Shown here: piece after piece, positions 2,587 through 15,557 of the stretch
Numbering within the stretch: position 1 is the stretch's first letter
Layout of the letters: each line of letters opens with the position of its first letter
Origin: a virus
DNA: 17,536 nucleotides
UHGV virus genome: UHGV-1676750
Reading direction: 5' to 3' (one strand)
Notes under the pieces: model-generated
Database searches by the model: none
What the model saw: the letters and a program-made list of their open reading frames with translations, nothing else
What the model was told of the DNA's origin: nothing
Program-made: the position numbers and the translations under genes

Positions 2587-2808
2587 ATGGACGCATCCAT
2601 ACTAGAAACACTTGCTCCAATCATCGGTGATACGCCCGTATCTGTGCAAATTAGCGCAGCACTTGAGCCAATGGCCTCAAAAAACTACGTGCACGATAAC
2701 TACGTCACACTCGATGATTTTGAAGAATTAAAAAGACAATTTGAAGCGCTAGTCGGAGATACGTCTGTTTCTGAACAAATTTCTACGGCGCTTAAAAATA
2801 ATAAATAA
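2587..2808 (+). CDS. Small fibre-motif protein (73 aa) carrying two copies of the VGDT-x-V-x-x-QI module
   Basis: ATG at 2587 with GAGGTG at 2575-2580; the track start at 2578 is a GTG inside the RBS. Contains IGDTPVSVQISAAL and VGDTSVSEQISTAL. Confidence 0.65.
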   Translation: MDASILETLAPIIGDTPVSVQISAALEPMASKNYVHDNYVTLDDFEELKRQFEALVGDTSVSEQISTALKNNK

Positions 2809-2835
2809 AACAATTCGTAAAAGGATGTGATAAAA

Positions 2836-3201
2836 TTGAGCACAAAAAAACTGCAAGTTTTAGATTATAAAATTAAGCAGGCTGAAAACGCTGATACTGT
2901 AGATAATAAGCACGCTTCTGACTTCGCATCCGCTACTGATATGAGCACGGCGCAAAATAATATTAGCGACCTTCAGGCAAAAGTCGGAGATACGCCTGTA
3001 TCTACGCAAATTACAAATGCTATCTCTTCAAACCGTATAGTTTACGTTCAAAACGAAGAGCCAGTTGATGCACCACCTGGATCGCTATGGGTGAATTTAG
3101 AATTGCAAAATACGGATGACTTTGTATCTGTTTATAAAGAAATTTTAATATTTGGAATACAATACGTTGCGCTTGTTGATAGTGATACTTTGATAATATG
3201 A
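2836..3201 (+). CDS. Short tail-fibre-like protein with one VGDT module and an EP…PPGSLW motif
   Basis: Probable TTG start at 2836, 10 nt after AAGGA (2821-2825); the GTG at 2827 is too close to the RBS. Contains KVGDTPVSTQITNAI and EEPVDAPPGSLWVNLE. Confidence 0.6.
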   Translation: MSTKKLQVLDYKIKQAENADTVDNKHASDFASATDMSTAQNNISDLQAKVGDTPVSTQITNAISSNRIVYVQNEEPVDAPPGSLWVNLELQNTDDFVSVYKEILIFGIQYVALVDSDTLII

Positions 3202-3211
3202 GGTGATGATA

Positions 3212-4171
3212 ATGGCAGATATAAGTAAAATTAATATTAAGAATGAACAATATGATATTAAAGATAATATCGCACGAACACATATAGCGAGCACAAGTAA
3301 TCCTCATGGCGTTACAGCTGAACAGGTCGGTGCAAGACCTGATACATGGATGCCTACAGCTGAACAGGTCGGTGCCGTAACGCCTGCGGAACTCAACGCC
3401 GCCATCCGCAAAGCCGCCCCGAGGAATCTGCTGGACAATTCCGATTTCAGGAATCCGGTGAATCAGAGGGGGCAGACGACATACACAAATAACGGTTACA
3501 CGATTGATCGATGGGAGCTATACAGTGGATTGATTGGCGTTTCTTCGGATGGTTATGTATCCACTAATGGACAAATGTATCAGAAAATCGAAATCGCCAC
3601 GGATAAAGTATATACATTTGCGGTCAAAACTGCCGCTGGAATAGCGGCTGTTACGGGAATCCCGGCAAACGGCGCAATCAATCCAGCAACGATTGGCAAC
3701 GCCTTGATTAAACTTGCTACGATTGGAGAGTATGTGGAAGTGGTCATCGAACCGGCTGAAGGATTCGATTTTGCTGGAGCATACTGGGCAGCCCTGTACG
3801 AAGGCTCTTACACTGCGGATACCCTTCCGGAGTACAAGCCGAAGGGGTACGGCGCGGAGCTGGCGGAATGTCAGAGGTATTACCAGCAGTTTTTAAACAA
3901 TGCGTTTTTAGGTTGGGCGACTGTTGATGCAGATGGCATTAACTTTCAGGGAATGATTCCCTGCGGCAGTATGCGGATTAATTCCCCCACGATTCTTGGC
4001 GGAATCTCCGCATGGACAGGCTTGGTTTCAATTGGCGTTTCTTCAGTTACAGTCTTTAATTATCAGGGCAATGGGATGCGGATTAACGGGTGTTTGGCGA
4101 GCAGCACAACGGCTGGCAGTGTCATTGCGATTTATGCTGCGGAAACGGTTGCATTTTCCGCTGACCTGTAA
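3212..4171 (+). CDS. Tail-fibre protein with a GC-rich, probably horizontally exchanged, C-terminal domain
   Basis: ATG at 3212 after GAGGTG. N-terminal SNPHGVTAEQVGA…PTAEQVGA is a duplicated fibre-type motif. G+C rises sharply from about 3340 onward (67% counted for 3361-3420). Confidence 0.7.
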   Translation: MADISKINIKNEQYDIKDNIARTHIASTSNPHGVTAEQVGARPDTWMPTAEQVGAVTPAELNAAIRKAAPRNLLDNSDFRNPVNQRGQTTYTNNGYTIDRWELYSGLIGVSSDGYVSTNGQMYQKIEIATDKVYTFAVKTAAGIAAVTGIPANGAINPATIGNALIKLATIGEYVEVVIEPAEGFDFAGAYWAALYEGSYTADTLPEYKPKGYGAELAECQRYYQQFLNNAFLGWATVDADGINFQGMIPCGSMRINSPTILGGISAWTGLVSIGVSSVTVFNYQGNGMRINGCLASSTTAGSVIAIYAAETVAFSADL

Positions 4172-4185
4172 AGGAGGAATGACAA

Positions 4186-4563
4186 ATGGAATATGAAAAT
4201 CCCTATATCGTGTATGTGAAAACCAATTCCAGCGGCTACATCACCGCCGTCAATTCCTCCGCTTTCCTGACGGACACTACGGACTGGACAGAAATCGACA
4301 GCGGCTATGGCGACAAATACCACCACGCGCAGGGAAACTACTTCCCCCAGCCAATCATCACCGACGGTGGTGCATACCGATATCGTCTGGTGGATGGAAA
4401 GCCTGTGGAATGTACCGCAGAGGAGATTGCGGAGCAGGAGGAGGCAATCAAATCTTCTATTATTACTGTACCAACTGCCGAGGAGCGCATTGCAGAGCTT
4501 GAAGCGCAGAATGAAATGTTACTTCAATGCGTACTCGAAATGAGTGAGACAGTTTATGCGTAA
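4186..4563 (+). CDS. Hypothetical protein directly downstream of the fibre gene; possible fibre-associated or chaperone-like protein (assigned by position only)
   Basis: ATG at 4186 with AGGAGG at 4174-4179. Shares the elevated G+C of the preceding fibre C-terminus. Acidic, helical-looking C-terminus. Confidence 0.55.
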   Translation: MEYENPYIVYVKTNSSGYITAVNSSAFLTDTTDWTEIDSGYGDKYHHAQGNYFPQPIITDGGAYRYRLVDGKPVECTAEEIAEQEEAIKSSIITVPTAEERIAELEAQNEMLLQCVLEMSETVYA

Positions 4564-4603
4564 AATATTATTTAACATACTTTTTGGAAAAGGAGGAGAA
4601 GAC

Positions 4604-4735
4604 ATGATGGCTATGTTATGGGCACAGCAAATTATGCTTGGCAAGAAGACCTTTGCGCAGGTTCCTCGTCTACTAAAAGACAAGGTTCGTGAGATTCTAG
4701 TAGATTCTGGCTGCGAAGATCTAATTGCAGAGTAA
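4604..4735 (+). CDS. Small protein (43 aa), possibly XkdX-like (low confidence)
   Basis: ATG at 4604 with AGGAGG at 4591-4596; the longer track ORF from 4544 lacks an RBS. The size and position after the fibre and fibre-associated genes resemble the PBSX xkdV-xkdW-xkdX order. Confidence 0.45.
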   Translation: MMAMLWAQQIMLGKKTFAQVPRLLKDKVREILVDSGCEDLIAE

Positions 4736-4772
4736 TCTGAACGAATATTACGCTAGGAGGTGCAAATAAAAA

Positions 4773-5195
4773 ATGGCAGAGTATATAACAAAAATTAGAA
4801 CTATGAATGGCGACTTGCAATATGACTATAATTCACTGTATGACAAACCAGAATCTGATACTCAATTAGAAAAATCAGGGGCGTTTGCCGATGCTCAGGT
4901 GGTTGGAAATAAAATTAAGAGCATAAATACACAACTGAATACCATTAATAGTCAGATTACAGAGATCAAGAATAGCACTCACGTTCATTCTGCAAATGAT
5001 ATTACTAGTGGTACACTAAGTGTTGACAGGCTGCCAACAATTCCGATTATAAAAGGCGGAACTGGAGCTGAAAATGGGCAAGATGGATTAAAGAATTTAT
5101 TAGCATCTGGGGCAATGATTTTGTCTGCTAATCAGTATGGGACTGACTTTCCAAGCAATCCAATTGTAGGTCAAGTCTTCTTTTTAAAGGTATAA
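4773..5195 (+). CDS. Short tail-fibre-like protein with a GGTGA motif and a P…P…GQVFF motif
   Basis: ATG at 4773 with AGGAGG at 4755-4760. Contains DRLPTIPIIKGGTGAENGQDGLKNLLA, as in fibre N-terminal regions, and ends …PSNPIVGQVFFLKV. Confidence 0.65.
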   Translation: MAEYITKIRTMNGDLQYDYNSLYDKPESDTQLEKSGAFADAQVVGNKIKSINTQLNTINSQITEIKNSTHVHSANDITSGTLSVDRLPTIPIIKGGTGAENGQDGLKNLLASGAMILSANQYGTDFPSNPIVGQVFFLKV

Positions 5196-5261
5196 ATTGG
5201 TGAGCTTTATGGAAGATATTTTACAAACTAATAAGTTAGTTAGATTGGCGGTGATTGCATA

Positions 5262-6152
5262 ATGGGAAGTGCTAGTGTATCCGCACCCACAACAGAGGGG
5301 ACTGTATTTGCATCAATAAGCTGGGATACTACTCCAACAGTATCTATAAGTATAACAGGCGGATATGGAATATCATGGAGAATTAGAGGTCGCGGAACAG
5401 ATACATATGTATATTATGGTCCAACAACTTCTTCGTCTGGTACGTTTACGGCAAGTTATGGAACAAGTTATGTACTTCAAGCAGTTAGCGACGGAGGATG
5501 GAATAATACTGGTGATAGTGTATTTACCGTCACGCAAGATGTTCACACTCACTCTTATTCTTTTTATACCACTGTTGACCCAACTTGTACTGAACAAGGT
5601 TATGAGATTTGGCGTTGTAGTGGTTGTGGTGATTTAGATTATAGAAATTATACTAACGCCCTTGGACATAACACTGTCAATACTGTTGTTACCCCGACCT
5701 GTACCGAACAAGGCTATACAACTCACATTTGCTCTCGTTGCGGAGCCACCACAAGCGCTAATGATAATTATACAAGTGCATTGGGCCACAATGATGCTAA
5801 TACTGTTGTTGCTCCAACTTGCACGGAACAAGGCTACACTAAGCATATTTGTTCCCGTTGTGGAATCACTATAAGTGCTAATGATAATTACATAAATGCT
5901 CTTGGACATGCGTGGGACGATGGTGAAATTATACTAGAACCAACTTATACCGAAGATGGAATTATAAAATATTTGTGTACAAGGTGCGGCGAAACTCGTA
6001 CAGAAGCTATAGCTAAAAAAGTTGGTTCGGTGCGTATTTATAACGGTTCAACTTTTGATATTTATAGTATCTATGTACGTGGAAAAGCGCAATCATGGGA
6101 TTTATATGTGCCGTACATATATAATGGATCAAGTTGGGATTTATATAGTTAG
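5262..6152 (+). CDS. Protein with four tandem ~40-aa Cys-rich (zinc-ribbon-like) repeats; putative binding or adhesin-type structural protein
   Basis: Repeats of H-x(9-11)-PTCTEQGY-x(4)-C-[ST]-x-CG-x(10-12)-ALG; the last copy is GHAWDDGEIILEPTYTEDGIIKYLCTRCGETRTEAI. Weak RBS; a 17-codon uORF (5209-5262) overlaps the start. Confidence 0.65.
   Translation: MGSASVSAPTTEGTVFASISWDTTPTVSISITGGYGISWRIRGRGTDTYVYYGPTTSSSGTFTASYGTSYVLQAVSDGGWNNTGDSVFTVTQDVHTHSYSFYTTVDPTCTEQGYEIWRCSGCGDLDYRNYTNALGHNTVNTVVTPTCTEQGYTTHICSRCGATTSANDNYTSALGHNDANTVVAPTCTEQGYTKHICSRCGITISANDNYINALGHAWDDGEIILEPTYTEDGIIKYLCTRCGETRTEAIAKKVGSVRIYNGSTFDIYSIYVRGKAQSWDLYVPYIYNGSSWDLYS
5544..6011 (+). repeat. Four tandem ~120-bp coding repeats (Cys-rich module) inside the 5262-6152 CDS
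   Basis: Units at roughly 5544-5666, 5667-5786, 5787-5906 and 5907-6011. Units 2 and 3 are clearly similar at nucleotide level (shared …CAAGGCTA… and …GCTAATGATAATTA… stretches). Confidence 0.7.
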
Positions 6153-6163
6153 GAGGTGAATAG

Positions 6164-6880
6164 ATGCCTCAGAACATCTTTAAAATCTATGATGGTAGAA
6201 CGAACTTTTGGCAATGGGACACTAAGCAGAAATTGATTGTTTTAGATGATCGTATTACAGAAGTTCGTTTTTCTAATAGAAATATGGAACACTCAAAACG
6301 TAGACCTGTCTACACGGACAATAATGGAGTTAGAATTTGTAATGTGCCTGATGTGCTCTTGCAACTTCCTAAGAATCTTATAGCGTATGCGTGTATTAAG
6401 CAAGACGATGGGACTTGTAGCACAGTAAAAGCGGTCAAGTTTGCAGTTGCTAGACAGCCAATTCCTGCGGATTATGTGTGTGAGCAAGATGCAGTTATTG
6501 AAAACATTCTCGCAAAGATCGAGATGCTTGAGAATTTACTCAAAGAAGTTGAGTCTGGATCAAAAGAAATGAAGAAGTTCACTAGCATGGTGGAAGCTGC
6601 ACAATGGGCCAAAGAAAATGGCAACGCTGGTGACATTGTTGTCATCAAACTTGATGTAGGTTGGGTGCCTCATGTTATTGAAGACGGCAAGAGTCTAAGC
6701 GCTATTTGCAACTGTGATGGCGATGAGATTGTTCTTCAGCTCGACGGAGATGACCCCGACGGCATTAATGAAGACGAAGAAGATATGGTTCTGTATTATG
6801 ACGGTAATTATATTGACGAAAGTAACGATGTAATTCAGTATTTTGATGGCGGTTCCGCATCTGGTTTACAAACGGGGTGA
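6164..6880 (+). CDS. Hypothetical phage protein (238 aa) with an acidic C-terminus
   Basis: ATG at 6164 with AGGAGGTGA at 6151-6159. No named motif. Confidence 0.7.
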   Translation: MPQNIFKIYDGRTNFWQWDTKQKLIVLDDRITEVRFSNRNMEHSKRRPVYTDNNGVRICNVPDVLLQLPKNLIAYACIKQDDGTCSTVKAVKFAVARQPIPADYVCEQDAVIENILAKIEMLENLLKEVESGSKEMKKFTSMVEAAQWAKENGNAGDIVVIKLDVGWVPHVIEDGKSLSAICNCDGDEIVLQLDGDDPDGINEDEEDMVLYYDGNYIDESNDVIQYFDGGSASGLQTG

Positions 6881-6884
6881 GAGA

Positions 6885-7244
6885 ATGGCCGATATAAGAA
6901 AAGTAAAAACTGTATTTCAAATCAGGCGCTCGACGACTGCGGAATGGGAAGCGAATAAAGATGCAATTCCTGATGCCGGAGAGCCCTGTTTTGATTTAGA
7001 CTTTGGTATATTAAAAATTGGTGATGGAAAGACCGCTTATAAAGACCTCAAGATTATTGGTGCTGGCGCTTCAATATCTGACGATGGTCTTTATTTAATT
7101 GTTGATAATTTGCAGAAAGATATCGATGAATTAAAGATCCGCATTGAAAATATTTCTGTTGAAGATCAAATTAATGATGCTATGAGCGATATTGTGGATG
7201 ACTCAGAATTACAGCAAACTCTGGATTCTGTGTTAAATAATTAA
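6885..7244 (+). CDS. Short fibre paralogue: HylP-like N-terminal attachment domain plus a short helical tail (possibly a truncated or minimal fibre)
   Basis: MADIRKVKTVFQIRRSTTAEWEANKDAIPDAGEPCFDLDFGILKIGDGKTAYKDLKIIG matches the conserved N-terminus of Gram-positive phage fibre/hyaluronidase (HylP) proteins: FQ/K-R-R…AEW…GE…D…KIGDG…Y…L. Confidence 0.7.
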   Translation: MADIRKVKTVFQIRRSTTAEWEANKDAIPDAGEPCFDLDFGILKIGDGKTAYKDLKIIGAGASISDDGLYLIVDNLQKDIDELKIRIENISVEDQINDAMSDIVDDSELQQTLDSVLNN

Positions 7245-7263
7245 GTTAAAGGAAGTGATGAAA

Positions 7264-8679
7264 ATGGCAATTAAAAAAATCAAGACATTGTTCCAACTCC
7301 GCAGGGGAACCACTGCCGAATGGGAACTCAATAAATCCGTAGTTCCCGCCGCTGGTGAACCGTGTTTTGATCTAGACCTTGGTACACTCAAAATTGGCGA
7401 CGGCGTTAAAACCTATGAGCAATTAGATGTAATTGGCGGCGGCAATGTAGCGCTTTCTGCCGATGGCAAGTCTATCATTTTGGATGACGGCATTTTTAAG
7501 CTTGCTGGTTTTGCCGATGCTGAAACTGGTGCTCAGCCTCGCAAGAACGCCGACGGCAATATTGAGTGGGTTGTACCTTCTAGCGAAACTCTTGATGGTC
7601 TACAGACAATTGTCGCTGGTTTACAAACTGACGTTACTGGATTGCAAACTAGCGTTGCTAGTATTCAGGAGGTTCTAGCTCCATCCGATGAAGGTGCAAT
7701 GACTCTACTAGAGAGAGTTGCCGCAATTGAGGGTAAGGTTGGCGAAAGCTCTGTTGATGAAAAAATTAACACTGCCTTTGACGACTTTATGGCAAAAGTT
7801 TCTGATGATGGCATCGTCAATACTGTCAAAGAACTAATTGACTATGTAGCAGACCATGCGCCCGAGGCCGCTCAGATGGCCGCTGATATTACTAGTCTGC
7901 AAGAACTTGTTGGTAACACCTCTGTTGATGCCCAAATTCTAGCTGCCATTACTACAAGCGAAGCAAAAACCGCTGCTCTTTACAAGAAAGTAAAATATGA
8001 GATTTCTTCTAAGCCCGCCGAAGCTTTAGTGGACTATAGAGAGAAAGAAATCAGAATTATGTGTCCCGCTGATACTCAATTTGAGCTTCAGAATGTTGGT
8101 CCTACTGGTGATTCTACTAGATACTATATTGGATTTAAGGCATATGCCCCTGATGGCGCTGTAAGCTTTAAGGAAGATACTAAGGCTACCATTGAAGATA
8201 CTACTATGTATTACTTTGAAGGCAATGATTTTGCTGGCACTGATGCTTATGGTCGTAAGTATAGTATTGTATGGCTACCTGTGGCAAAGCATAATGATGA
8301 TGATACTTGGACTTATTATGGTACTAATTCTAGTGCTGCCAAGTATATTGGCTGGTACTACTCTGTCGAGTGGTATGGTGCTAATGGTAAGGTTATTGCG
8401 TCTGATATCATTCGTATTAATCTAAGTAATGAGGCTTGCCATAATGTGGTTGAGCCTTATTTTATGGGCCAAGTTGTTAAGGGAGTTAGCGTTGGTGGAA
8501 CTCTGCTTGATTTGATTGACAATAAGGTTAATATTAATGCCAGTGATATTGTTAAAGGGTCTGATGAAATTGCGGTTGCTGAGGACGGGACTCTAAGCAT
8601 TGGCCAAATTAATGTGTCCAAGCTGGTGCAGGATGAAGGCTCCGAGCTAGTCTTTGATGGCGGCGGGGCTTCTAGATAA
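7264..8679 (+). CDS. Tail-fibre protein with a HylP-like N-terminal domain, GLQTxVx heptad repeats and VGxxSVD-x-x-I modules
   Basis: ATG at 7264, 8 nt after AAAGGAAG. N-terminus TLFQLRRGTTAEWELNKSVVPAAGEPCFDLDLGTLKIGDGVKTYEQL. Three 21-bp tandem heptad repeats at 7597-7659. Contains LVGNTSVDAQILAAI and KVGESSVDEKINTAF. Confidence 0.8.
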   Translation: MAIKKIKTLFQLRRGTTAEWELNKSVVPAAGEPCFDLDLGTLKIGDGVKTYEQLDVIGGGNVALSADGKSIILDDGIFKLAGFADAETGAQPRKNADGNIEWVVPSSETLDGLQTIVAGLQTDVTGLQTSVASIQEVLAPSDEGAMTLLERVAAIEGKVGESSVDEKINTAFDDFMAKVSDDGIVNTVKELIDYVADHAPEAAQMAADITSLQELVGNTSVDAQILAAITTSEAKTAALYKKVKYEISSKPAEALVDYREKEIRIMCPADTQFELQNVGPTGDSTRYYIGFKAYAPDGAVSFKEDTKATIEDTTMYYFEGNDFAGTDAYGRKYSIVWLPVAKHNDDDTWTYYGTNSSAAKYIGWYYSVEWYGANGKVIASDIIRINLSNEACHNVVEPYFMGQVVKGVSVGGTLLDLIDNKVNINASDIVKGSDEIAVAEDGTLSIGQINVSKLVQDEGSELVFDGGGASR

Positions 8680-8726
8680 CAACAAAAACTAAATAAAATT
8701 TTAATCATTAAAGGAGAAATGTAATC

Positions 8727-10664
8727 ATGGCTATTGAAAAAACACTTAATACTCGTCTGAAACTTCGTTACGATTCTCATGAGAATTGGCTTGCTAATGA
8801 TCCTACTCTGCTTGCAGGCGAAGTCGCTCTAAGTGCTGTATCTGTTAAGCAGGACGGCGTAGTTAACGAAGTCCCCAGCGTACTAATTAAAGTTGGCGAT
8901 GGCACTCATAAGTATTCCGAACTAGATTATGCTTACGCGAGGGCGGCAGATGTCATCGAGCAGGCTAAGAGTGCAGAAAAGCTAACCGATTTCATCAACA
9001 ATGTAATTGCTAGTGCTGGTATTGCCACTGACGAGGCTCTAACTACTCTAGCTGGTAAGGTTACTACTGCCGAAGGCAAGATCACTGCTCTAGAAGGTCT
9101 AGTTGGCGATACTGCCGTAGCCACTCAGATTCAGAATAAGATTGATGCTCTGAAACTATCCGATACCTATGCCGCAAAGTCTCACACTCATACTAAGTCT
9201 GAGATTACTGATTTTGCGCATACTCATGTTATTGGTGATGTAACTGGTTTAAGCGATTCTATTGCTGAAGCTAAGCAGACTGGCCTTGACGCAACTTCTG
9301 CTCTTAATACTTATAAGAATACTAATGATGCTGCTGTAAAGGCCAATACTGATGCAATTGCTGCTATTAACAACGCTGACACTGGTATTCTTGCTCAGGC
9401 TAAGACTTATGCTGACGGAAAGGATGCCGCTATTACCGCTGCTAAGAATGCTGCTGATGCTGCTCAGGCTGACGTTGACGCCCTAGAAGCTAAGGTCGGC
9501 ACTGTCCCTGCAGATACCACTGTTGTCCAGATGATTGCTGACGCCCAGGATGCTGCTACTTATGATGACACTGCTCTAAAGGGTCGTGTAAGCGCAAACG
9601 AGACTGCTATTAGCAAGCTAAATGGGCTTGTCGGTGACACCGCTGTCGCCACTCAGATTAGCACTGCTGTTTCCGATGCTAAGACTGAGCTAAAGGGTAG
9701 CGCTTCCGATACCGATGCTTCTGCTACTATTGCTGGCGCTAAGAAGTATGCTGACAAGCTAGATGCTGCTATGGATGCTCGTGTTGATGCTCTAGAGGCT
9801 GCTGTTGGCGAAGATGGTTCTGTTGCAGAGAAGATCACTGCCGCAGTTGAAGCTCTTGACGCTACCGTTGAGACCGCTGCAATCCCAGAAGGTCAGGACG
9901 GTATTTATGTAAAGGTTACCGAGGTTGATGGTAAGCTAACTGCTGTTGAGGCTACTATCGAAGTATCTAATGAGATTAATGCTGCTAAGTCCGAGCTTGA
10001 GGACAAGATTGGTACTGTTGCCGAGGGTAAGACTCTTGCTGGTCTAATCGCTGACAATGCTGCCGCTATTGAGGCTCATAAGACTGCGGTCGATGCTAAG
10101 GTAACCACTCTAATTGGTGCTGATACCGACAAATCCGTGCGTACTATTGCTAATGAGGAACTGGCTGCTCAGCTGATTCCTGAGAACGCTAAGGAATCTC
10201 TAAATACCCTACAGGAGATCGCTGCTTGGATTCAGGCTCACCCCGATGATGCCGCTACAATGAATACGGCCATTGCAAACCTAAAGGCGCTAGTTGGTGA
10301 CGAAAGTGTTAACGCTCAGATTAATACTGCCGTTGACAACCTAAAGAATAACGAGATTAAGAACGCAACTGATCGCATTGCAGATCTAGAGGCTGATACT
10401 CACACTCATGCCAACAAGGCCCTGCTCGATTCTTACACTCAGACCGAAGCTGACCTGGCTGACGCCGTTGCTAAGAAGCACGAGCACGCTAATGCTACCG
10501 AACTGGCCAAGTTCGTTGAGGGTGATAAGGATAAGCTAGATGCCGCCGTTCAGACTGTTACCGCTGGCACTGGCCTCACCGCAACTAAGACTGGTACTGA
10601 TGTAGCTATTGGATTTGACGATACTGTCACTTTCGTGTTTGACTGCGGCGATAGCTCCATCTAA
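8727..10664 (+). CDS. Long tail-fibre protein: HylP-like N-terminus (variant), Ala-rich helical shaft, three VGD-x-x-V-x-x-QI modules and HTH/HxH motifs
   Basis: ATG at 8727 with AAGGAG at 8711-8716. Contains LVGDTAVATQIQNKI, LVGDTAVATQISTAV, LVGDESVNAQINTAV, SHTHTKSEITDFAHTHV and DTHTHANKALLDSY. G+C is visibly higher than in flanking AT-rich genes. Confidence 0.8.
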   Translation: MAIEKTLNTRLKLRYDSHENWLANDPTLLAGEVALSAVSVKQDGVVNEVPSVLIKVGDGTHKYSELDYAYARAADVIEQAKSAEKLTDFINNVIASAGIATDEALTTLAGKVTTAEGKITALEGLVGDTAVATQIQNKIDALKLSDTYAAKSHTHTKSEITDFAHTHVIGDVTGLSDSIAEAKQTGLDATSALNTYKNTNDAAVKANTDAIAAINNADTGILAQAKTYADGKDAAITAAKNAADAAQADVDALEAKVGTVPADTTVVQMIADAQDAATYDDTALKGRVSANETAISKLNGLVGDTAVATQISTAVSDAKTELKGSASDTDASATIAGAKKYADKLDAAMDARVDALEAAVGEDGSVAEKITAAVEALDATVETAAIPEGQDGIYVKVTEVDGKLTAVEATIEVSNEINAAKSELEDKIGTVAEGKTLAGLIADNAAAIEAHKTAVDAKVTTLIGADTDKSVRTIANEELAAQLIPENAKESLNTLQEIAAWIQAHPDDAATMNTAIANLKALVGDESVNAQINTAVDNLKNNEIKNATDRIADLEADTHTHANKALLDSYTQTEADLADAVAKKHEHANATELAKFVEGDKDKLDAAVQTVTAGTGLTATKTGTDVAIGFDDTVTFVFDCGDSSI

Positions 10665-10686
10665 TTTTATAGCCTAATTCTAAGCA

Positions 10687-10717
10687 AGTTGCCTCGTTAT
10701 TCGTAACGGGGCAACTT
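10687..10717 (+). promoter_or_regulatory. Intergenic hairpin without a U-tract (RNA structure or processing/regulatory element)
   Basis: AAGTTGCCTCG (10687-10697) pairs with CGGGGCAACTT (10707-10717): 11-bp stem with one G-U wobble and a 10-nt loop. No T-run follows. Confidence 0.35.
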
Positions 10718-10743
10718 CAATAAGAAAGGATGAGGACTTCTTT

Positions 10744-11589
10744 ATGCCAAATAAAGAAATATTGGCCCGTGTCAAGCAAAAAAGAGATACGAGCGCTAAC
10801 TGGGAAGCACGAAATCCAGTTATTTTAAATGGCGAGATTATTCTCGTAGATACCAACGCAGGCGAGCTTAGAGCTAAAATTGGCGATGGTACAAAAACGT
10901 ATACTCAGCTACCTTTTTCAGATGAAGCTTTAAGAAGCCTCATCAATGCAAATAAGGTTACGGTAGATAGTGCGCTGTCTTCTACTAGTACCAATCCTGT
11001 ACAGAATAAAATTGTAAACGCCGCCATTAGCAACTTGAATACTTTGGTTGGTGATACCTCTATATCTTCTCAAATCGAAACTGCTGTTGCTTCAAAGCTC
11101 GACGCCGCAGATGCGACTTGGGCTCAGATTTATGATTCTGGCGCAATTACATCAGAAGTAAACTCTATTGCGGGCATTGATATCACAGGTTATAAGAGTC
11201 TAATGGTTGCTGTTAAGTGTGTAAACACTACGAATACCGCCAGTACAAGAGCTGGTGCGGTAATTTTTACTGGCAATAATCAAGACTATGCGTTTAATAA
11301 TCTTTTTAGCAACCTGATTAAAAATGGTACAACAACTTCCGGTGCTATGGCTAAATTTAAGATCGTGGACGGTTTTATTATTTGTGAGACTGCTATGAGA
11401 GCAATTACTGCGGATGGCATTTTATCTGATGCCGAAGGGGTAGGAATTGATACATTAGCCCCAGTAAGTAGTGGTCTTATTAAGTGTACAAACGCAGTCA
11501 CTACAATGGCCGTTTCTAGTGCGGCTCAGTCTGCAGACCATTACTACGGTGTTGGTAGTAGAGTTATTGTTTGGGGGTGTAAGGTATAA
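10744..11589 (+). CDS. Tail-fibre protein with a HylP-like N-terminal domain and one VGDT module
   Basis: N-terminus ILARVKQKRDTSANWEARNPVILNGEIILVDTNAGELRAKIGDGTKTYTQLPF. Contains LVGDTSISSQIETAVASKL. Confidence 0.8.
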   Translation: MPNKEILARVKQKRDTSANWEARNPVILNGEIILVDTNAGELRAKIGDGTKTYTQLPFSDEALRSLINANKVTVDSALSSTSTNPVQNKIVNAAISNLNTLVGDTSISSQIETAVASKLDAADATWAQIYDSGAITSEVNSIAGIDITGYKSLMVAVKCVNTTNTASTRAGAVIFTGNNQDYAFNNLFSNLIKNGTTTSGAMAKFKIVDGFIICETAMRAITADGILSDAEGVGIDTLAPVSSGLIKCTNAVTTMAVSSAAQSADHYYGVGSRVIVWGCKV

Positions 11590-11963
11590 TGGCAAATAAA
11601 ACAATTACAGCATGGGTAAATGGTGCAGTTCAGTCAATTAGTGTTCCAGACGTGGCATATACTGCTCCTAAAGTTACCATTGAGGACAAGGTTAGTGCTC
11701 TTATTGCTACAGTGACACTGCCAGTCGCTGATTGGGCGGGTTCAGCAAGTCCGTATTATCAGACGATAGACTCTAATATTTTTACCGCCAATAGTATGGT
11801 TGATTTACAGCCAACCCCTGAGCAGCTTGCGGAATGGCAAGATGATGGACTGGCTTTTAGCACCACAAATGATAATGGAGTGGTGAAGGTATATGTTGCT
11901 GGTGGTGTACCTGCTGCCGATATTACTGTACAGATTAAGGTACAGGAGGTGGTTGTCATATGA
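11589..11963 (+). CDS. Hypothetical protein carrying a ~85-aa domain that is also present at the C-terminus of the 16021-16617 product
   Basis: TAATG overlap with the upstream gene. TLPVADWAGSASPYYQT…DITVQIKVQEV parallels TIPVNWVGTSAPYTQD…EVPIQVEVI in 16021-16617. Confidence 0.7.
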   Translation: MANKTITAWVNGAVQSISVPDVAYTAPKVTIEDKVSALIATVTLPVADWAGSASPYYQTIDSNIFTANSMVDLQPTPEQLAEWQDDGLAFSTTNDNGVVKVYVAGGVPAADITVQIKVQEVVVI

Positions 11964-12451
11964 TATATGGCAATGCAACTGGTGGCTTTGGAATGCCAAA
12001 GTCATTTGTTTTAACAGATGATAGTGGAAATGAAATGACAGGGGTTGTAACTGGTGAACAAGTTGTATTTACAGCTGGTTTAAGCGATATTAGAGCGGGT
12101 AAGGTTGCAGCCAATGCAGATGGTATTGTTACTGGTACGAAAGATATACCAGCATATCATACTACAGAAGGTCATCGAGTAATTACACCTGGAAGTGATT
12201 GTAAAATCTATATTCCTAATTACGAATATACCGGTTTACAAGCTATAGTTTGTTCATACAATACCTCTTTAGATGATAGTGTTGCCGCTAATCAAGTTGC
12301 CATTAAAGGCAATTTATATAATGTACAATCTGTAGACATATTATCTATAATTAGTATAGATAATACAGATCAGTGTATTAATTTAGGGATTACAAACACA
12401 ACTGATAATTTATTAATTATTAGATATTTTAGTTATAAGGAGATTTTATGA
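11960..12451 (+). CDS. Hypothetical protein (163 aa), Gly/Thr-rich N-terminus
   Basis: ATGA overlap with the upstream gene; AGGAGGT at 11944-11950. AT-rich (about 22% G+C counted for 12301-12360). Confidence 0.7.
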   Translation: MIYGNATGGFGMPKSFVLTDDSGNEMTGVVTGEQVVFTAGLSDIRAGKVAANADGIVTGTKDIPAYHTTEGHRVITPGSDCKIYIPNYEYTGLQAIVCSYNTSLDDSVAANQVAIKGNLYNVQSVDILSIISIDNTDQCINLGITNTTDNLLIIRYFSYKEIL

Positions 12452-12690
12452 TGGAAACGAGACGTTATGCATATAATTTTGCAGAAATTGATAATGCCAC
12501 TAATATGTGTATTGGTGTTATAACTACTACAGATCCAAACACAGAAGGTCCAACTGGTGGTGGAACAACTTTTGTTGCAATTCCAGTATATGATGAGAAT
12601 TATTCTTTAAAATATTACAATTGGGATAATGGTAAATTTTATTATGACTCTGCGTATACACAGGAGTACATTTCTCCATTACTACAATAA
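12448..12690 (+). CDS. Hypothetical small protein (80 aa)
   Basis: ATGA overlap with the upstream gene (translational coupling). No named motif. Confidence 0.6.
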   Translation: MMETRRYAYNFAEIDNATNMCIGVITTTDPNTEGPTGGGTTFVAIPVYDENYSLKYYNWDNGKFYYDSAYTQEYISPLLQ

Positions 12691-12712
12691 TTAAACAAAG
12701 GGGCGACGGATT

Positions 12713-12883
12713 ATGAATAAATATTTCTATTGTTATAGCTATCCATTAAAAGAATTTTTCAAAAAAAACGGCTTAAGTTACATTACCGCCGCTACGAATC
12801 ATTCAACAAATAAAACGTATTGGTTGTTTGAAGGATCTGAAAAATTAAATATGTTATTACAAAAATGGCGTTTAAATAAATAA
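12713..12883 (+). CDS. Unannotated small ORF (56 aa), hypothetical; absent from the ORF track because it is under 60 aa
   Basis: ATG at 12713 preceded by AAAGGGG. Translates to MNKYFYCYSYPLKEFFKKNGLSYITAATNHSTNKTYWLFEGSEKLNMLLQKWRLNK. Contains an A8 run at 12761-12768. The stop codon is embedded in the hairpin at 12862-12893. Confidence 0.4.
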   Translation: MNKYFYCYSYPLKEFFKKNGLSYITAATNHSTNKTYWLFEGSEKLNMLLQKWRLNK

Positions 12884-12900
12884 ACGTCATTTTCTATTTT
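12862..12900 (+). terminator. Candidate AT-rich intrinsic terminator
   Basis: AAAATGGCGTTT (12862-12873) pairs with AAACGTCATTTT (12882-12893): 12-bp stem with one G-U wobble and an 8-nt loop, followed by CTATTTT. The stem is AT-rich, hence modest stability. Confidence 0.4.
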
Positions 12901-12928
12901 ACAAATGATGTTTTGGAGGTAACTAAAG

Positions 12929-14266
12929 ATGAAGAAGTTGACGCATGAAGAATTTATTGAGAAAGTAACGAAACTCAACGAACATGTTGCAAATGGTGAG
13001 ATAGAAATATTAAGTCAGTATATAAACCAAAGAACTAAAATTAAATGTAAATGTGCCATACATAATACTATATGGGAGAGATCGGTACAAAGCCTTTACG
13101 AAAATAGTGGTTGTGAAGATTGTAAATATGAATTAAGTGGAAGAAAAAGACGGTTTTCACATGAAGAATTTGTTGAAAAGATAAAGGTTTTAAATGATGA
13201 AATTATAGTTTTGGGACATTATACAACGATGAATAAATCAATTGAATTTCAATGTAAATTTGGTCATATATGGACAGCCAAGCCTTATAGCATTATCAAT
13301 GGGCATCAATGTCCATATTGTGCTGGGCAAAAACCTATAATTGGGAATAATGACTTATGGACAACAAGACCAGACGTTGCAAGTTTATTAAAAAATCGTG
13401 ATGACGGATATGGTTTGATGGAATTTAGTCAGCGTAAAGTAATATTTATTTGTCCAACATGCGGTAACGAAATCATAAAATCAGTTCAACGTGTATCAAT
13501 AGATGGGCTTGTTTGCCAAAGATGTTCTGATGGTGTATCATATCCGAATAAATTTGCAAGAGCATTTTTAAATCAACTACTTGGTAATAATTTTAAATGT
13601 GAGTATCAACCTGATTGGGCCAAACCATATTATTATGATAATTATTTTGAATATGGTAATAAGAAATATATTTTGGAGATGGATGGCAGTTTTCATTATA
13701 TTTCAAGACAGTTGACCAAACAGTCTCTTGATGAACGAAAAAGGATTGATGCATTAAAAGATAAACTTGCTGAGCAACATAATATTCGTGTTATTCGTAT
13801 AGAGTGTATAAAATCTAATTGTAATTACATAAAGAATAACATTTTACAATCCGAGTTGAGTTTAGTTTTTAATTTATCTAAGATTAATTGGGATTTATGC
13901 GACCAAATGGCGCAAAGAAGTTTGGTTAAAGATGTTTGTAATTTATATATGAACGGAATAAAAGATTTGCATAAAATAGCAGAAATATTGCATATTAGCA
14001 AAAGTACGGTATATGTATATTTGGTTAGAGGTTCTAAGTTTGGATGGTGTGATTACGATGGGAAGAATGCTCATTACTTGAAAATTTCTATTCCAATAAT
14101 TGTACTTGATGAAAATAACAATGCTATACATAAGTTTGATAGTATTAGTGCGTGCAAAGAAGAGATGAAAAAAATGTACGGATATTCATTTGATAGAAAT
14201 ACTTTGAAAAAAGCTTGTGAGTATTCTATTTCATATCATGGATTTAACTTTAAATATGCGTATTAA
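12929..14266 (+). CDS. Multi-domain homing-endonuclease-like protein: tandem zinc-ribbon modules, a Vsr/DUF559-like PD-(D/E)xK nuclease core, a helix-turn-helix and a NUMOD1-like C-terminal DNA-binding domain
   Basis: Two ~60-aa repeats ([TS]HEEF[IV]EK…LN…C-x-x-H…W…G-x-x-C-x-x-C) and a third CPTCG…CQRCS module. KKYILEMDGSFHYI…DERKRIDALKDKLAEQHNIRVIRIE resembles the DUF559/Vsr-like endonuclease motif. KIAEILHISKSTVYVYL is HTH-like. The C-terminus IPIIVLDENNNAIHKFDSISACKEEM…YHGFNFKY parallels the C-terminus of the GIY-YIG protein. Very AT-rich. RBS GGAGGT at 12915-12920. Confidence 0.65.
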   Translation: MKKLTHEEFIEKVTKLNEHVANGEIEILSQYINQRTKIKCKCAIHNTIWERSVQSLYENSGCEDCKYELSGRKRRFSHEEFVEKIKVLNDEIIVLGHYTTMNKSIEFQCKFGHIWTAKPYSIINGHQCPYCAGQKPIIGNNDLWTTRPDVASLLKNRDDGYGLMEFSQRKVIFICPTCGNEIIKSVQRVSIDGLVCQRCSDGVSYPNKFARAFLNQLLGNNFKCEYQPDWAKPYYYDNYFEYGNKKYILEMDGSFHYISRQLTKQSLDERKRIDALKDKLAEQHNIRVIRIECIKSNCNYIKNNILQSELSLVFNLSKINWDLCDQMAQRSLVKDVCNLYMNGIKDLHKIAEILHISKSTVYVYLVRGSKFGWCDYDGKNAHYLKISIPIIVLDENNNAIHKFDSISACKEEMKKMYGYSFDRNTLKKACEYSISYHGFNFKYAY

Positions 14267-14336
14267 CAATACAAAATTAATGTTTAAAGTAATTAGTGAA
14301 ATAATAAAGTCTAAAATACTAAGGAGGAGTTTATAT

Positions 14337-15557
14337 ATGTCTAACCCCAATTTCAATCCTACGTATAGCTCGAACTTAATTTGGAGAGATGAAGACGACA
14401 CTCGTTGTATTACTGATGACCTAGATAATATCGAATCCGACATCACTGCACTCGAAACAGGCAAGGCCGACACTAACCATACACATACCGGATATGCTAC
14501 TACAGATCACACTCATACAGGCTACGCCGCAGCAGATCATACCCACACTGGCTATGCGGCGGCTGCAGACGTAACTACACTACAAAATTTGGTTGGAGAC
14601 ACTAGTGTATCTTCTCAGATCAGTACGGCTATTGCGGGCAAGGTTGATGCTGTGGAAGGTAAAGGCTTGTCTACCAATGACTATACGACAGCCGAGAAGA
14701 ATAAGCTTACTGGAATTGATACAGGAGCTAACAATTATGTGCTTCCAACTGCAAGCAGCACTACTCTTGGCGGTATTAAAACTGGGGATAACATTACTAA
14801 TTCGTCTGGTACGATTAGTCTAACAAAAAGCAATGTCACGTCAGCTTTAGGATATACTCCATTTGGCAGTAGTACGTTGTCAATGGCCAATGGTGGTACT
14901 GGCAGCGCTCAGGTTGTTAATGCTCCAAAGAATGCCATATTGAAGAAGGCAAACGATGGGAACTATGTGTGGTATACTCAGACAAAAAGTGGGGCTTTCT
15001 ACGCTACTGCAACAGATGGAGTTCCGAAATTCGGTGTACTGCCCAAGGCATTAGGTGGCACAGGTGCGGATTTCAGTAATATTCCAGCTAATGCTATTAT
15101 TCGTAATTCTGGTTCTGGCGGTAGTGACTTGTACTATTTTGCAACTGGCAATGGGGCATGCTATGCCACATCAGCTAATGGGTATCCGACTTTTGGTACA
15201 TTGCCCGTAGCGCAAGGTGGCACTGGCGAAACTACTGCTTGGACAAATGGTACAGTTACGAGTTTGAATAGTACTACTATTACATCATACCAATTTGCTG
15301 TTTTCCCCTATTTAAATAAGGCATTTATTAGGCTTAATGTGCTATTAGGTAGTGCTTTAGATGCTGACGAAGCTAGATATATAGTAATGCCGTCAACTGT
15401 TGCAACTGCACATACTGCTTTGTCTTGCTTTAATATTGCTGGATATGATATTCATTGTGGTATGGCTAGCGATAGTGGCATTTATGTAATTAATTGTGGT
15501 ACTGCTTCAATGCCCAATACTGTACGTCTTTATATTGCGGGATGGTATTCAATCTAA
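14337..15557 (+). CDS. Tail-fibre protein with an HTHTGYA triple repeat, one VGDT module and repeated GGTG motifs
   Basis: ATG at 14337 with AAGGAGG at 14321-14327; the track ORF from 14217 overlaps the upstream gene and lacks an RBS. Contains NHTHTGYATTDHTHTGYAAADHTHTGYAAA, LVGDTSVSSQISTAIAGKV, and three L-x-x-x-GGTG motifs (MANGGTGSA, PKALGGTGAD, PVAQGGTGET). Confidence 0.8.
   Translation: MSNPNFNPTYSSNLIWRDEDDTRCITDDLDNIESDITALETGKADTNHTHTGYATTDHTHTGYAAADHTHTGYAAAADVTTLQNLVGDTSVSSQISTAIAGKVDAVEGKGLSTNDYTTAEKNKLTGIDTGANNYVLPTASSTTLGGIKTGDNITNSSGTISLTKSNVTSALGYTPFGSSTLSMANGGTGSAQVVNAPKNAILKKANDGNYVWYTQTKSGAFYATATDGVPKFGVLPKALGGTGADFSNIPANAIIRNSGSGGSDLYYFATGNGACYATSANGYPTFGTLPVAQGGTGETTAWTNGTVTSLNSTTITSYQFAVFPYLNKAFIRLNVLLGSALDADEARYIVMPSTVATAHTALSCFNIAGYDIHCGMASDSGIYVINCGTASMPNTVRLYIAGWYSI
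14475..14564 (+). repeat. Three tandem 30-bp coding repeats, each encoding [ND]HTHTGYA-x-x
   Basis: aaccatacacataccggatatgctactaca / gatcacactcatacaggctacgccgcagca / gatcatacccacactggctatgcggcggct. Confidence 0.75.

Follow-up and report, generated by a model that had tools for sequence, protein, structure and literature searches.

A recurrent VGDTxVxxQI module in the fibre genes of an uncultured gut phage, probably a structural joint of helical shafts

A stretch of 17,536 nucleotides (nt) from the virus genome UHGV-1676750, referred to as the window, comes from an uncultured phage and carries structural genes in one block on the + strand. Six of these genes encode a short protein module with the signature VGDTxVxxQI, ten copies in all. 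We propose that the module is a structural joint of trimeric helical fibre shafts which acts at the level of the protein and is not a DNA element. We assign this reading a probability of about 0.72; within it we infer the trimeric state, the collinear geometry of the helices and the function as a joint which resets the register. The module is without a model in the family databases searched, while the kind of element is familiar.

The motif can be outlined as …I..L..LVGDTxVxxQI..AI…, roughly 28 residues. Scanning the window with the pattern G[DEN][TSE]x[VI]xx[QK]I returns exactly 10 matches in six open reading frames, all in coding frames of the + strand; in the other frames of the window the pattern is not found. 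The codons of the central glycine, which is counted as position 0, are at nt 2626 and 2755 (gene 2587-2808), 2986 (gene 2836-3201), 7741 and 7912 (gene 7264-8679), 9105, 9633 and 10296 (gene 8727-10664), 11050 (gene 10744-11589) and 14595 (gene 14337-15557). The chance expectation from per-protein shuffling (2000 shuffles) is a mean of 0.013 matches and a maximum of 1. All ten copies are also detected, with 18.8-47.7 bits, by a hidden Markov model (HMM) for which solely modules from unrelated proteins of the database were used; it adds a half-copy in a seventh gene with 10.0 bits. Nothing comparable is detected by this HMM in the other five frames of the window. The recurrence is real and statistically robust. 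All ten peptides quoted in a first-pass annotation, which had been made from the sequence without database searches, are confirmed at their places, and the DNA strings given there are correct. That annotation had also named what would speak against the module, a generic low-complexity match without positional conservation in homologues. The flanks of the module are indeed helical sequence rich in Ala, Ser and Thr. Yet a chance origin, or a generic coiled-coil similarity of low complexity, is refuted by 10 copies versus 0.013 expected, by a near-invariant and non-repetitive core, by the 19-48 bits of the independent HMM, and by key residues at fixed positions in 40 orthologues. Its probability is practically nil.

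The module is not confined to the window. As the first-pass annotation had suggested, a profile of the ten copies was searched against protein databases, here exhaustively against 1.84 billion protein cluster representatives. It retrieved 831 proteins at E<=1e-3 and 236 at E<=1e-10. These carry 2-12 copies each and are up to 2044 amino acids (aa) long. The number of 831 is an undercount because a single copy of the module scores too low to reach significance. The logo of 457 distinct database copies has the consensus [IVL]xxLxx[LK]VGDT[SA]V[SA]xQIxxA[IV]. G0 is present in 99%, V+4 and I+8 in 98% each, Q+7 in 97% and A+11 in 91% of the copies; V-1 (88%), D+1 (82%) and L-5 (76%) are less strictly kept. 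Usual upstream contexts are S.NPVQNKVV..AISNLNTLVGDT, LTNAKAYTD.EI.EWVGDT and MSAADK..LD.L..LVGDT; the usual downstream context is K(S/A)D..H.H. A strict back-translated pattern occurs in 67 stretches of IMG/VR, mostly on contigs of 85-185 kb, many of which have several. In 50,697 deposited phage genomes a tblastn search with the module consensus gave only a weak match, to the crAss-like phage cr116_1. Isolate phages therefore offered no annotated case. The fibres belong to a lineage of large uncultured phages of the human gut, and the few matches in bacterial records are mostly from Clostridia. The first-pass annotation could not assign the module to a named domain family, and this is borne out. 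No model in Pfam or NCBIfam covers it, and the PHROG families which overlap a module copy are exclusively of unknown function. Searching PDB sequences with the module profile, and by phmmer with three of the fibre proteins, gave no match for the module. Within the collection of papers searched, motif strings returned nothing relevant to it.

Structure predictions by AlphaFold2 (AF2) were run on monomers and read out as secondary structure, with alignments of 41 sequences for the product of gene 10744 and 40 sequences for that of gene 8727. All four modelled modules are predicted as helix, a break of 4-5 residues which begins at G or V, and helix. The first helix ends with V-1, GDTx is non-helical, and the second helix starts with V+4. 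In 416 database copies hydrophobic residues are located at -12, -8, -5 and -1, and again at +4, +8, +11/12 and +15. This is a 4-3-4 heptad pattern on either side of the break with a phase shift of +2 (416-457 database copies). From V-1 to I+8 the a-to-a distance is nine residues, i.e., nonad spacing with flanking heptads (416 copies). In solved trimeric coiled coils the nonad register a-b-c-beta1-beta2-beta3-e-f-g gives beta-layers (Hartmann et al., 2016, eLife, PMC4786415). With such spacing the module would act as a register-defining joint between coiled-coil segments. The earlier suggestion of a conserved structural joint is supported by the break at all four modelled copies, by the register shift and by the invariant key residues. 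The first-pass annotation had likewise proposed to map the modules onto predicted trimer structures; monomer models gave a consistent helix-break-helix.

Conservation among orthologues points to the same residues. For the product of gene 8727 we compared 40 proteins with 62-78% identity. Invariant are L122, V126, G127, V131, I135 and I139 in copy 6, G303, V307, Q310 and I311 in copy 7, and L519, V523, G524, V528, Q531 and I532 in copy 8. This protein additionally has three loop-expanded variants of the module, KVGTVPADTTVVQMI, AVGEDGSVAEKI and KIGTVAEGKTLAGLI, and at each the predicted helix break is longer. In the variant at 9459..9545 the residues G258, V260, T265, V267, M269 and I270 are invariant in the same orthologues, in the variant at 9780..9860 G361, G364, S365, V366 and I370.

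A further line of evidence concerns the position of the module in mosaic proteins. The first-pass annotation had proposed to look in related genomes for breakpoints which coincide with modules, and homology boundaries of mosaic relatives do fall there. The product of gene 10744, in which the module comprises residues 90-120, was compared with 120 relatives. In relatives which share the N-terminal part BLAST alignments end at residue 95/96 (22 relatives), 104 (26) or 115-127 (about 18); in relatives which share the C-terminal part only, homology starts at residues 103-126. Individual mosaics locate the switch more precisely. The P0193 class diverges within the module (NLNTLIGD/AVKEDMP, +1 from the glycine). 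P0161 has a 105-aa insert directly after the module, at +13 from the glycine. In P0184 the module is joined directly, at +15, to a domain whose homologue is encoded by gene 11589, the next one in the window, and P0177 switches to another domain at +17. Most of the mapped junctions, at +13 to +17 residues, fall on the module's C-terminal edge and not within its conserved core. In tblastn comparisons with related loci the ends of high-scoring segment pairs cluster at residues 211-240 of the 7264 product (copy 5), and their starts cluster at residues 81-110 of the 14337 product (copy 10). These alignments show the module at the boundaries of exchangeable segments.

Two observations on relatives of the 10744 product belong here. 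P0169 carries the canonical neck/beta-layer motif ELATKEYVD directly before the common C-terminal domain, where the VGDT module is located in the window protein; connector motifs therefore appear to be interchangeable. In some relatives (P0177, P0184) the fibre continues in frame, right behind the module, into the product of gene 11589-11963, which hints at a fusion or fission of the fibre gene and its downstream neighbour.

How would such a joint operate? The unit of about 28 residues would consist of a first helix of about 12-17 residues with core positions -12, -8, -5 and -1, the four-residue break G-D-T-x, and a second helix of about 11-12 residues with core positions +4, +8, +11/12 and +15. 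The invariant glycine may halt the first helix and the D/T residues may initiate the second. With nine residues from V-1 to I+8, the heptad repeat would be interrupted by a nonad which shifts it by +2. The joint would close one coiled-coil segment and restart the next one in a defined register. Helical segments, HxH segments and globular receptor-binding domains could then be strung together, and many paralogous fibres could be built from one common repertoire of short shaft motifs. As the joint would mark the border between exchangeable segments, mosaic junctions would be expected to fall at the module.

Several observations weigh against this proposal. Confidence of the AF2 models at the modules is moderate to low, with a predicted local distance difference test score (pLDDT) of about 50-80, as one expects when a fibrous oligomer is modelled as a monomer. 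The residues at the putative beta-layer deviate from the canonical ones: beta1 is T in 67% (K and E in 10% each) and beta3 is V in 98%; only beta2, S/A in 64%, fits. In the 8727 orthologues the conservation of whole modules is not above the average of the protein, only the key columns being invariant. The near-invariance of Q+7 and A+11 exceeds what a simple linker needs. The monomer predictions are compatible with a collinear as well as with a hairpin geometry. Lastly, the conserved positions are mirror-symmetric about the turn, and in stand-alone proteins of 68-105 aa the module is located at the extreme termini; the two features would be in keeping with an antiparallel helical hairpin, too.

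Such a hairpin, a helix-turn-helix which folds back on itself and forms a supercoiled stalk like the phi29 head fibre gp8.5, or six-helix knobs, is unlikely, if the best placed among the alternatives. The mirrored hydrophobic pairs about the GDTx turn are -1/+4, -5/+8, -8/+11-12 and -12/+15. The small Ala at +11, conserved to 91%, and the Gly at the first position of the loop speak for it as well. In the stand-alone proteins the terminal location of the module leaves only 8-9 helical residues on the outer side, and immediately behind its module gene 14337 matches the phi29 head-fibre family, though weakly and below threshold. However, the helices which flank the breaks in the 8727 product are long and unequal (25/11, 21/17 and 18/29 residues), and the a-to-a spacing of nine residues is exactly that of a nonad register. 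The PDB profile search links the module neither to 3QC7 nor to any other solved chain, and the similarity to phi29 resides in the neighbouring YxLPxA..LGG motif and not in the module.

A recombination signal, i.e., module DNA kept similar as microhomology for the exchange of fibre segments between paralogues and between phages, is quite unlikely. The clustering of breakpoints at the module is in its favour, as are the high-identity mosaics which change partner there and the presence, in other proteins, of a module ahead of each of several downstream domains (e.g., P0177, P0189). The DNA itself lends it little support. Identity among copies is 45-79% for the 33-nt cores and 35-62% for the 93-nt modules, the longest exact run common to module copies is 13 nt, and a repeat search found only 42-mers of 60-76% identity which track the coding frame. 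Synonymous codons were redrawn from the window's own codon usage and compared at identical amino acids. Over all module pairs 201 codons are identical versus 180 ± 15 expected (P=0.09), and over pairs from different genes 169 versus 157 ± 13 (P=0.20). Only pairs from the same gene are in excess, slightly so and in favour of a signal (32 versus 23, P=0.014). As the codon identity between genes is at expectation, protein conservation accounts for the nucleotide similarity, which follows from near-invariant residues together with codon bias and is no separate feature. The first-pass description of the module as conserved at the nucleotide level is therefore only weakly true and does not extend beyond amino acids and codon usage. 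On the same grounds, the 13-nt run and the between-gene codon identity, a DNA repeat element is rejected. Moreover, the profile of nucleotide identity against the IMG/VR contig IMGVR_UViG_3300045988_093379 has no consistent step at the modules. Most junctions are at the C-terminal edge of the module, which is also a domain boundary, and local alignments tend to end at conserved islands regardless. No role for DNA is needed to explain the near-invariant residues (G, V, Q, I, A), as selection on protein structure suffices. The earlier idea of domain shuffling by microhomology finds no support in the window; the mosaic relatives, about 74% identical in nucleotides, are too diverged for mapping crossovers.

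A more far-reaching version of the joint is conceivable, and we consider it improbable. Here the VGDTxVxxQI unit would be a distinct, autonomously folding coiled-coil discontinuity, possibly with a Q/D layer for an ion or a partner. The mini-proteins of the 2587 family would be a new kind of fibre accessory which co-assembles with or cross-links module-bearing fibres, and the module would serve both for structural registry and as the site of exchange when fibres are combined from parts in large phages of gut Clostridia.

Very improbable is a specific binding site, in which the invariant D, T and Q bind ions in a layer at the three-fold axis, or else let the 2587 protein or other fibres dock and co-assemble with module-bearing fibres. 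Q+7 (97%) and D+1 (82%) are conserved beyond the needs of a plain linker, there is a family of 68-105-aa proteins with little beyond two modules, and ion-binding polar layers do occur in the core of trimeric coiled coils. Yet there are 2-12 copies per protein, located anywhere along the shafts, which suggests that the module is a repeated unit of construction and no singular place for docking.

Module copies and variants in the window. H, predicted helix; residue numbers are those of the respective protein.
Feature	Position (nt)	Strand	Gene and placement	Detection	AF2 prediction
copy 1 ASILETLAPIIGDTPVSVQISAALEP	2593..2670	+	2587-2808, N-terminal module of the 73-aa two-module protein	pattern, HMM 28.2 bits	
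copy 2 EALVGDTSVSEQISTALKN	2743..2799	+	2587-2808, C-terminal module	pattern, HMM 36.9 bits	
copy 3 AQNNISDLQAKVGDTPVSTQITNAISS	2950..3030	+	2836-3201	pattern, HMM 42.3 bits	
degenerate half-copy SVEDQINDAMSDIVD (IENISVEDQINDAM), without the G-D turn	7155..7199	+	6846-7244, Mtd_N N-terminus	repeat family D1, HMM 10.0 bits	
copy 4 VAAIEGKVGESSVDEKINTAFDD	7717..7785	+	7264-8679	pattern, HMM 18.8 bits	
copy 5 MAADITSLQELVGNTSVDAQILAAIT	7876..7953	+	7264-8679	pattern, HMM 24.2 bits	
copy 6 TAEGKITALEGLVGDTAVATQIQNKIDALK	9066..9155	+	8727-10664	HMM 40.8 bits	H102-126 / break 127-130 / H131-141
loop-expanded variant …ALEAKVGTVPADTTVVQMIADA…	9459..9545	+	8727-10664	HMM, first helix only	H221-256 / break 257-265 / H266-276
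copy 7 SANETAISKLNGLVGDTAVATQISTAVSDAK	9591..9683	+	8727-10664	HMM 45.2 bits	H282-302 / break 303-306 / H307-323
loop-expanded variant …ALEAAVGEDGSVAEKITAAVEALD	9780..9860	+	8727-10664	HMM, second helix only	break 360-365
copy 8 TMNTAIANLKALVGDESVNAQINTAVDNLK	10257..10346	+	8727-10664	HMM 34.5 bits	H506-523 / break 524-527 / H528-556
copy 9 VNAAISNLNTLVGDTSISSQIETAVASK	11014..11097	+	10744-11589, between N-terminal anchor (Mtd_N + S.NPVQNK helix) and C-terminal lectin-like beta-sandwich	HMM 43.4 bits	H85-101 / break 102-106 / H107-115
copy 10 AAAADVTTLQNLVGDTSVSSQISTAIAGKVD	14556..14648	+	14337-15557, between three DHTHTGYA (HxH) repeats and a GLSTNDYT..EK.KL / YVLP.A...LGGIK segment	HMM 47.7 bits	

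Domain and family matches place the module in a fibre context. For the Mtd_N domain (PF18454), genes 6846 and 7264 score 40.7 and 49.6 bits, above the cut-off, and gene 10744 is just below it (25.5 versus 26.3 bits). A homotrimer is presumed from this Mtd_N/HylP type of tail fibre. Genes 6846, 7264 and 10744 match tail-fibre PHROGs, genes 8727 (PHROG 19976) and 14337 match tail-protein PHROGs, and gene 3212 is a member of a tail-fibre PHROG. A Foldseek search with the 8727 model, which is of low confidence and informative for the N-terminal HylP-like domain only, returned as best and sole fold match the N-terminus of the trimeric streptococcal phage fibre HylP; the match is weak (E about 0.06, 64 columns). 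The 10744 model is informative in Foldseek for its C-terminal lectin-like domain only. This domain (residues ~126-281, window 11120-11589) is a beta-sandwich predicted with pLDDT >90 and resembles the N-terminal domains of coronavirus spikes and the L-type lectin ERGIC-53. According to the model it is likely a carbohydrate-binding receptor-binding domain.

The 73-aa product of gene 2587-2808 consists of two modules and a linker and little else. Similar proteins of two modules, 68-105 aa long and likewise stand-alone, form separate database clusters (P0109, P0115, P0118, P0095, P0149). HxH motifs adjoin modules in two window genes, three times DHTHTGYA in gene 14337 (~14472-14560) and SHTHT…FAHTHV in gene 8727 (9160-9210). 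They recall the metal-binding HxH motifs of T4 fibre proteins. The segment GLSTNDYT..EK.KL…YVLP.A…LGGIK of the 14337 product (residues 109-163, window 14661-14825) is weakly similar to the phi29 head fibre (6QVK, 3QC7) and also to head-fibre proteins of crAss-like phages (7QOF).

As to the origin of the window, it was found on a human gut metagenome contig (ENA ERZ27229705 k119_217039). Megablast of the whole window against the 50,697 deposited phage genomes gave no match. The closest relative in IMG/VR is the 93-kb contig IMGVR_UViG_3300045988_093379 with 85% nucleotide identity over window 6141-12000. Five bacterial genome records contain distant relatives of the 8727 product, one of them a Prevotella sp. 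metagenome-assembled genome (MAG). The other four belong to Clostridia or their relatives and comprise Hominicoprocola fusiformis and MAGs of an uncultured Eubacteriales, of Clostridia and of a Wujia sp.

Some neighbouring genes deserve mention. Gene 1006-1833 is a free-standing homing-endonuclease gene with GIY-YIG and NUMOD3, and gene 12929-14266 is a free-standing gene in a stretch of low GC content (about 0.30). The DNA upstream of the two genes, with ribosome-binding site and start, is near-identical (86%), and a 23-mer, CCCTTGACAATACAAAATTAATG, is repeated at their ends; these flanking stretches are at 854-876, 980-1008, 1813-1835, 12903-12931 and 14260-14282. The contig IMGVR_UViG_3300045988_093379 has no nucleotide match to window 12000-14352, a region which includes gene 12929-14266. 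The protein of gene 5262-6152 contains four repeats of ~40 aa with Cys-x2-Cys … Cys-x2-Cys (…TCTEQGY…C.RCG…ALGH…), which have a zinc-ribbon-like look; a tandem repeat of 120 nt is located at 5646-5885. The products of genes 6164 and 7264 end in a similar peptide, FDGG(S/G)AS (window 6842-6871 versus 8653-8682, 73% nucleotide identity), and gene 6164-6880 overlaps the start of gene 6846.

Tail fibres decide which hosts a phage can infect, and in uncultured gut phages most of these proteins are unannotated. The module may serve as a flag for fibre genes; it marks six or seven genes in a window of 17.5 kb and at least 831 public protein clusters. As it appears to mark the natural boundaries of swapped receptor-binding domains, it offers candidate splice points for chimeric fibres. 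Moreover, the few catalogued discontinuities of coiled coils gain a new sequence signature. Nothing is overturned thereby; mosaic fibres made from short conserved motifs are expected in phages.

Known systems share some of these features. In the distal tail-fibre and adhesin genes of T-even phages, recombination reportedly takes place at a conserved motif, the 'His box'. As in the window, variable adhesin segments are bordered by short conserved motifs, on which the boundaries of mosaics fall. The window motifs differ in having at most 13 identical bases in a run and no excess of synonymous identity between genes. The trimeric phage fibre fibritin (Wac) of T4 has coiled-coil segments parted by short Gly-containing loops (e.g., …NLQVEIGNNSAGIKGQV…). 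In fibritin, too, the segments restart in register after such loops. However, fibritin loops vary in sequence and length and keep the heptad phase, whereas the module is one near-invariant loop which is used over and over, shifts the register by +2 and has no sequence match among PDB chains. The phi29 head fibre gp8.5 (3QC7; Pfam PF11133) is comparable as a fibrous trimer of short helices and turns. Gene 14337 scores 22.8 bits against PF11133 (Phage_head_fibr), below the gathering cut-off of 24.6, with residues 116-161 downstream of the module, and E=0.05-0.17 in the search of PDB sequences. In contrast to a relationship through the module, the similarity lies in the YxLPxA…LGG(V/I)K segment.

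The Pfam family PTR (PF12789) occurs in the same database proteins as the module and directly follows many copies (…K(S/A)D..HTHDDRYYTESE…GHTH). It spans the HxH segment next to the module and not the module itself, and on this ground PTR is rejected as the module's family. Against the window proteins PTR has no match at E<=1.

A close likeness is with the beta-layer, or nonad, coiled coils (PMC4786415). There, beta1 and beta2 are hydrophobic, beta2 being small, and beta3 is a polar cap, T/D (PMC4786415). The stalk of HylP1 (2C3F), a tail fibre of a streptococcal prophage, is a solved alpha/beta coiled coil of this type (PMC4786415). The module differs in its signature, V-G-D-T-x-V-[SA]-x-Q-I and not [aliphatic]-A-T-K-x-[DE] or IENKAD, in Thr at beta1 and Val at beta3 where a hydrophobic residue and a polar cap are canonical, and in the predicted break, which is at G0 to +3 and not at +2 to +4. 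The likeness is one of sequence register and monomer model. It comprises the nine residues from a to a with heptads on both sides, the small beta2 residue (S/A), and host proteins which are phage fibres with an Mtd_N/HylP-like N-terminus, one relative of which, P0169, has a canonical motif of this class at the equivalent place.

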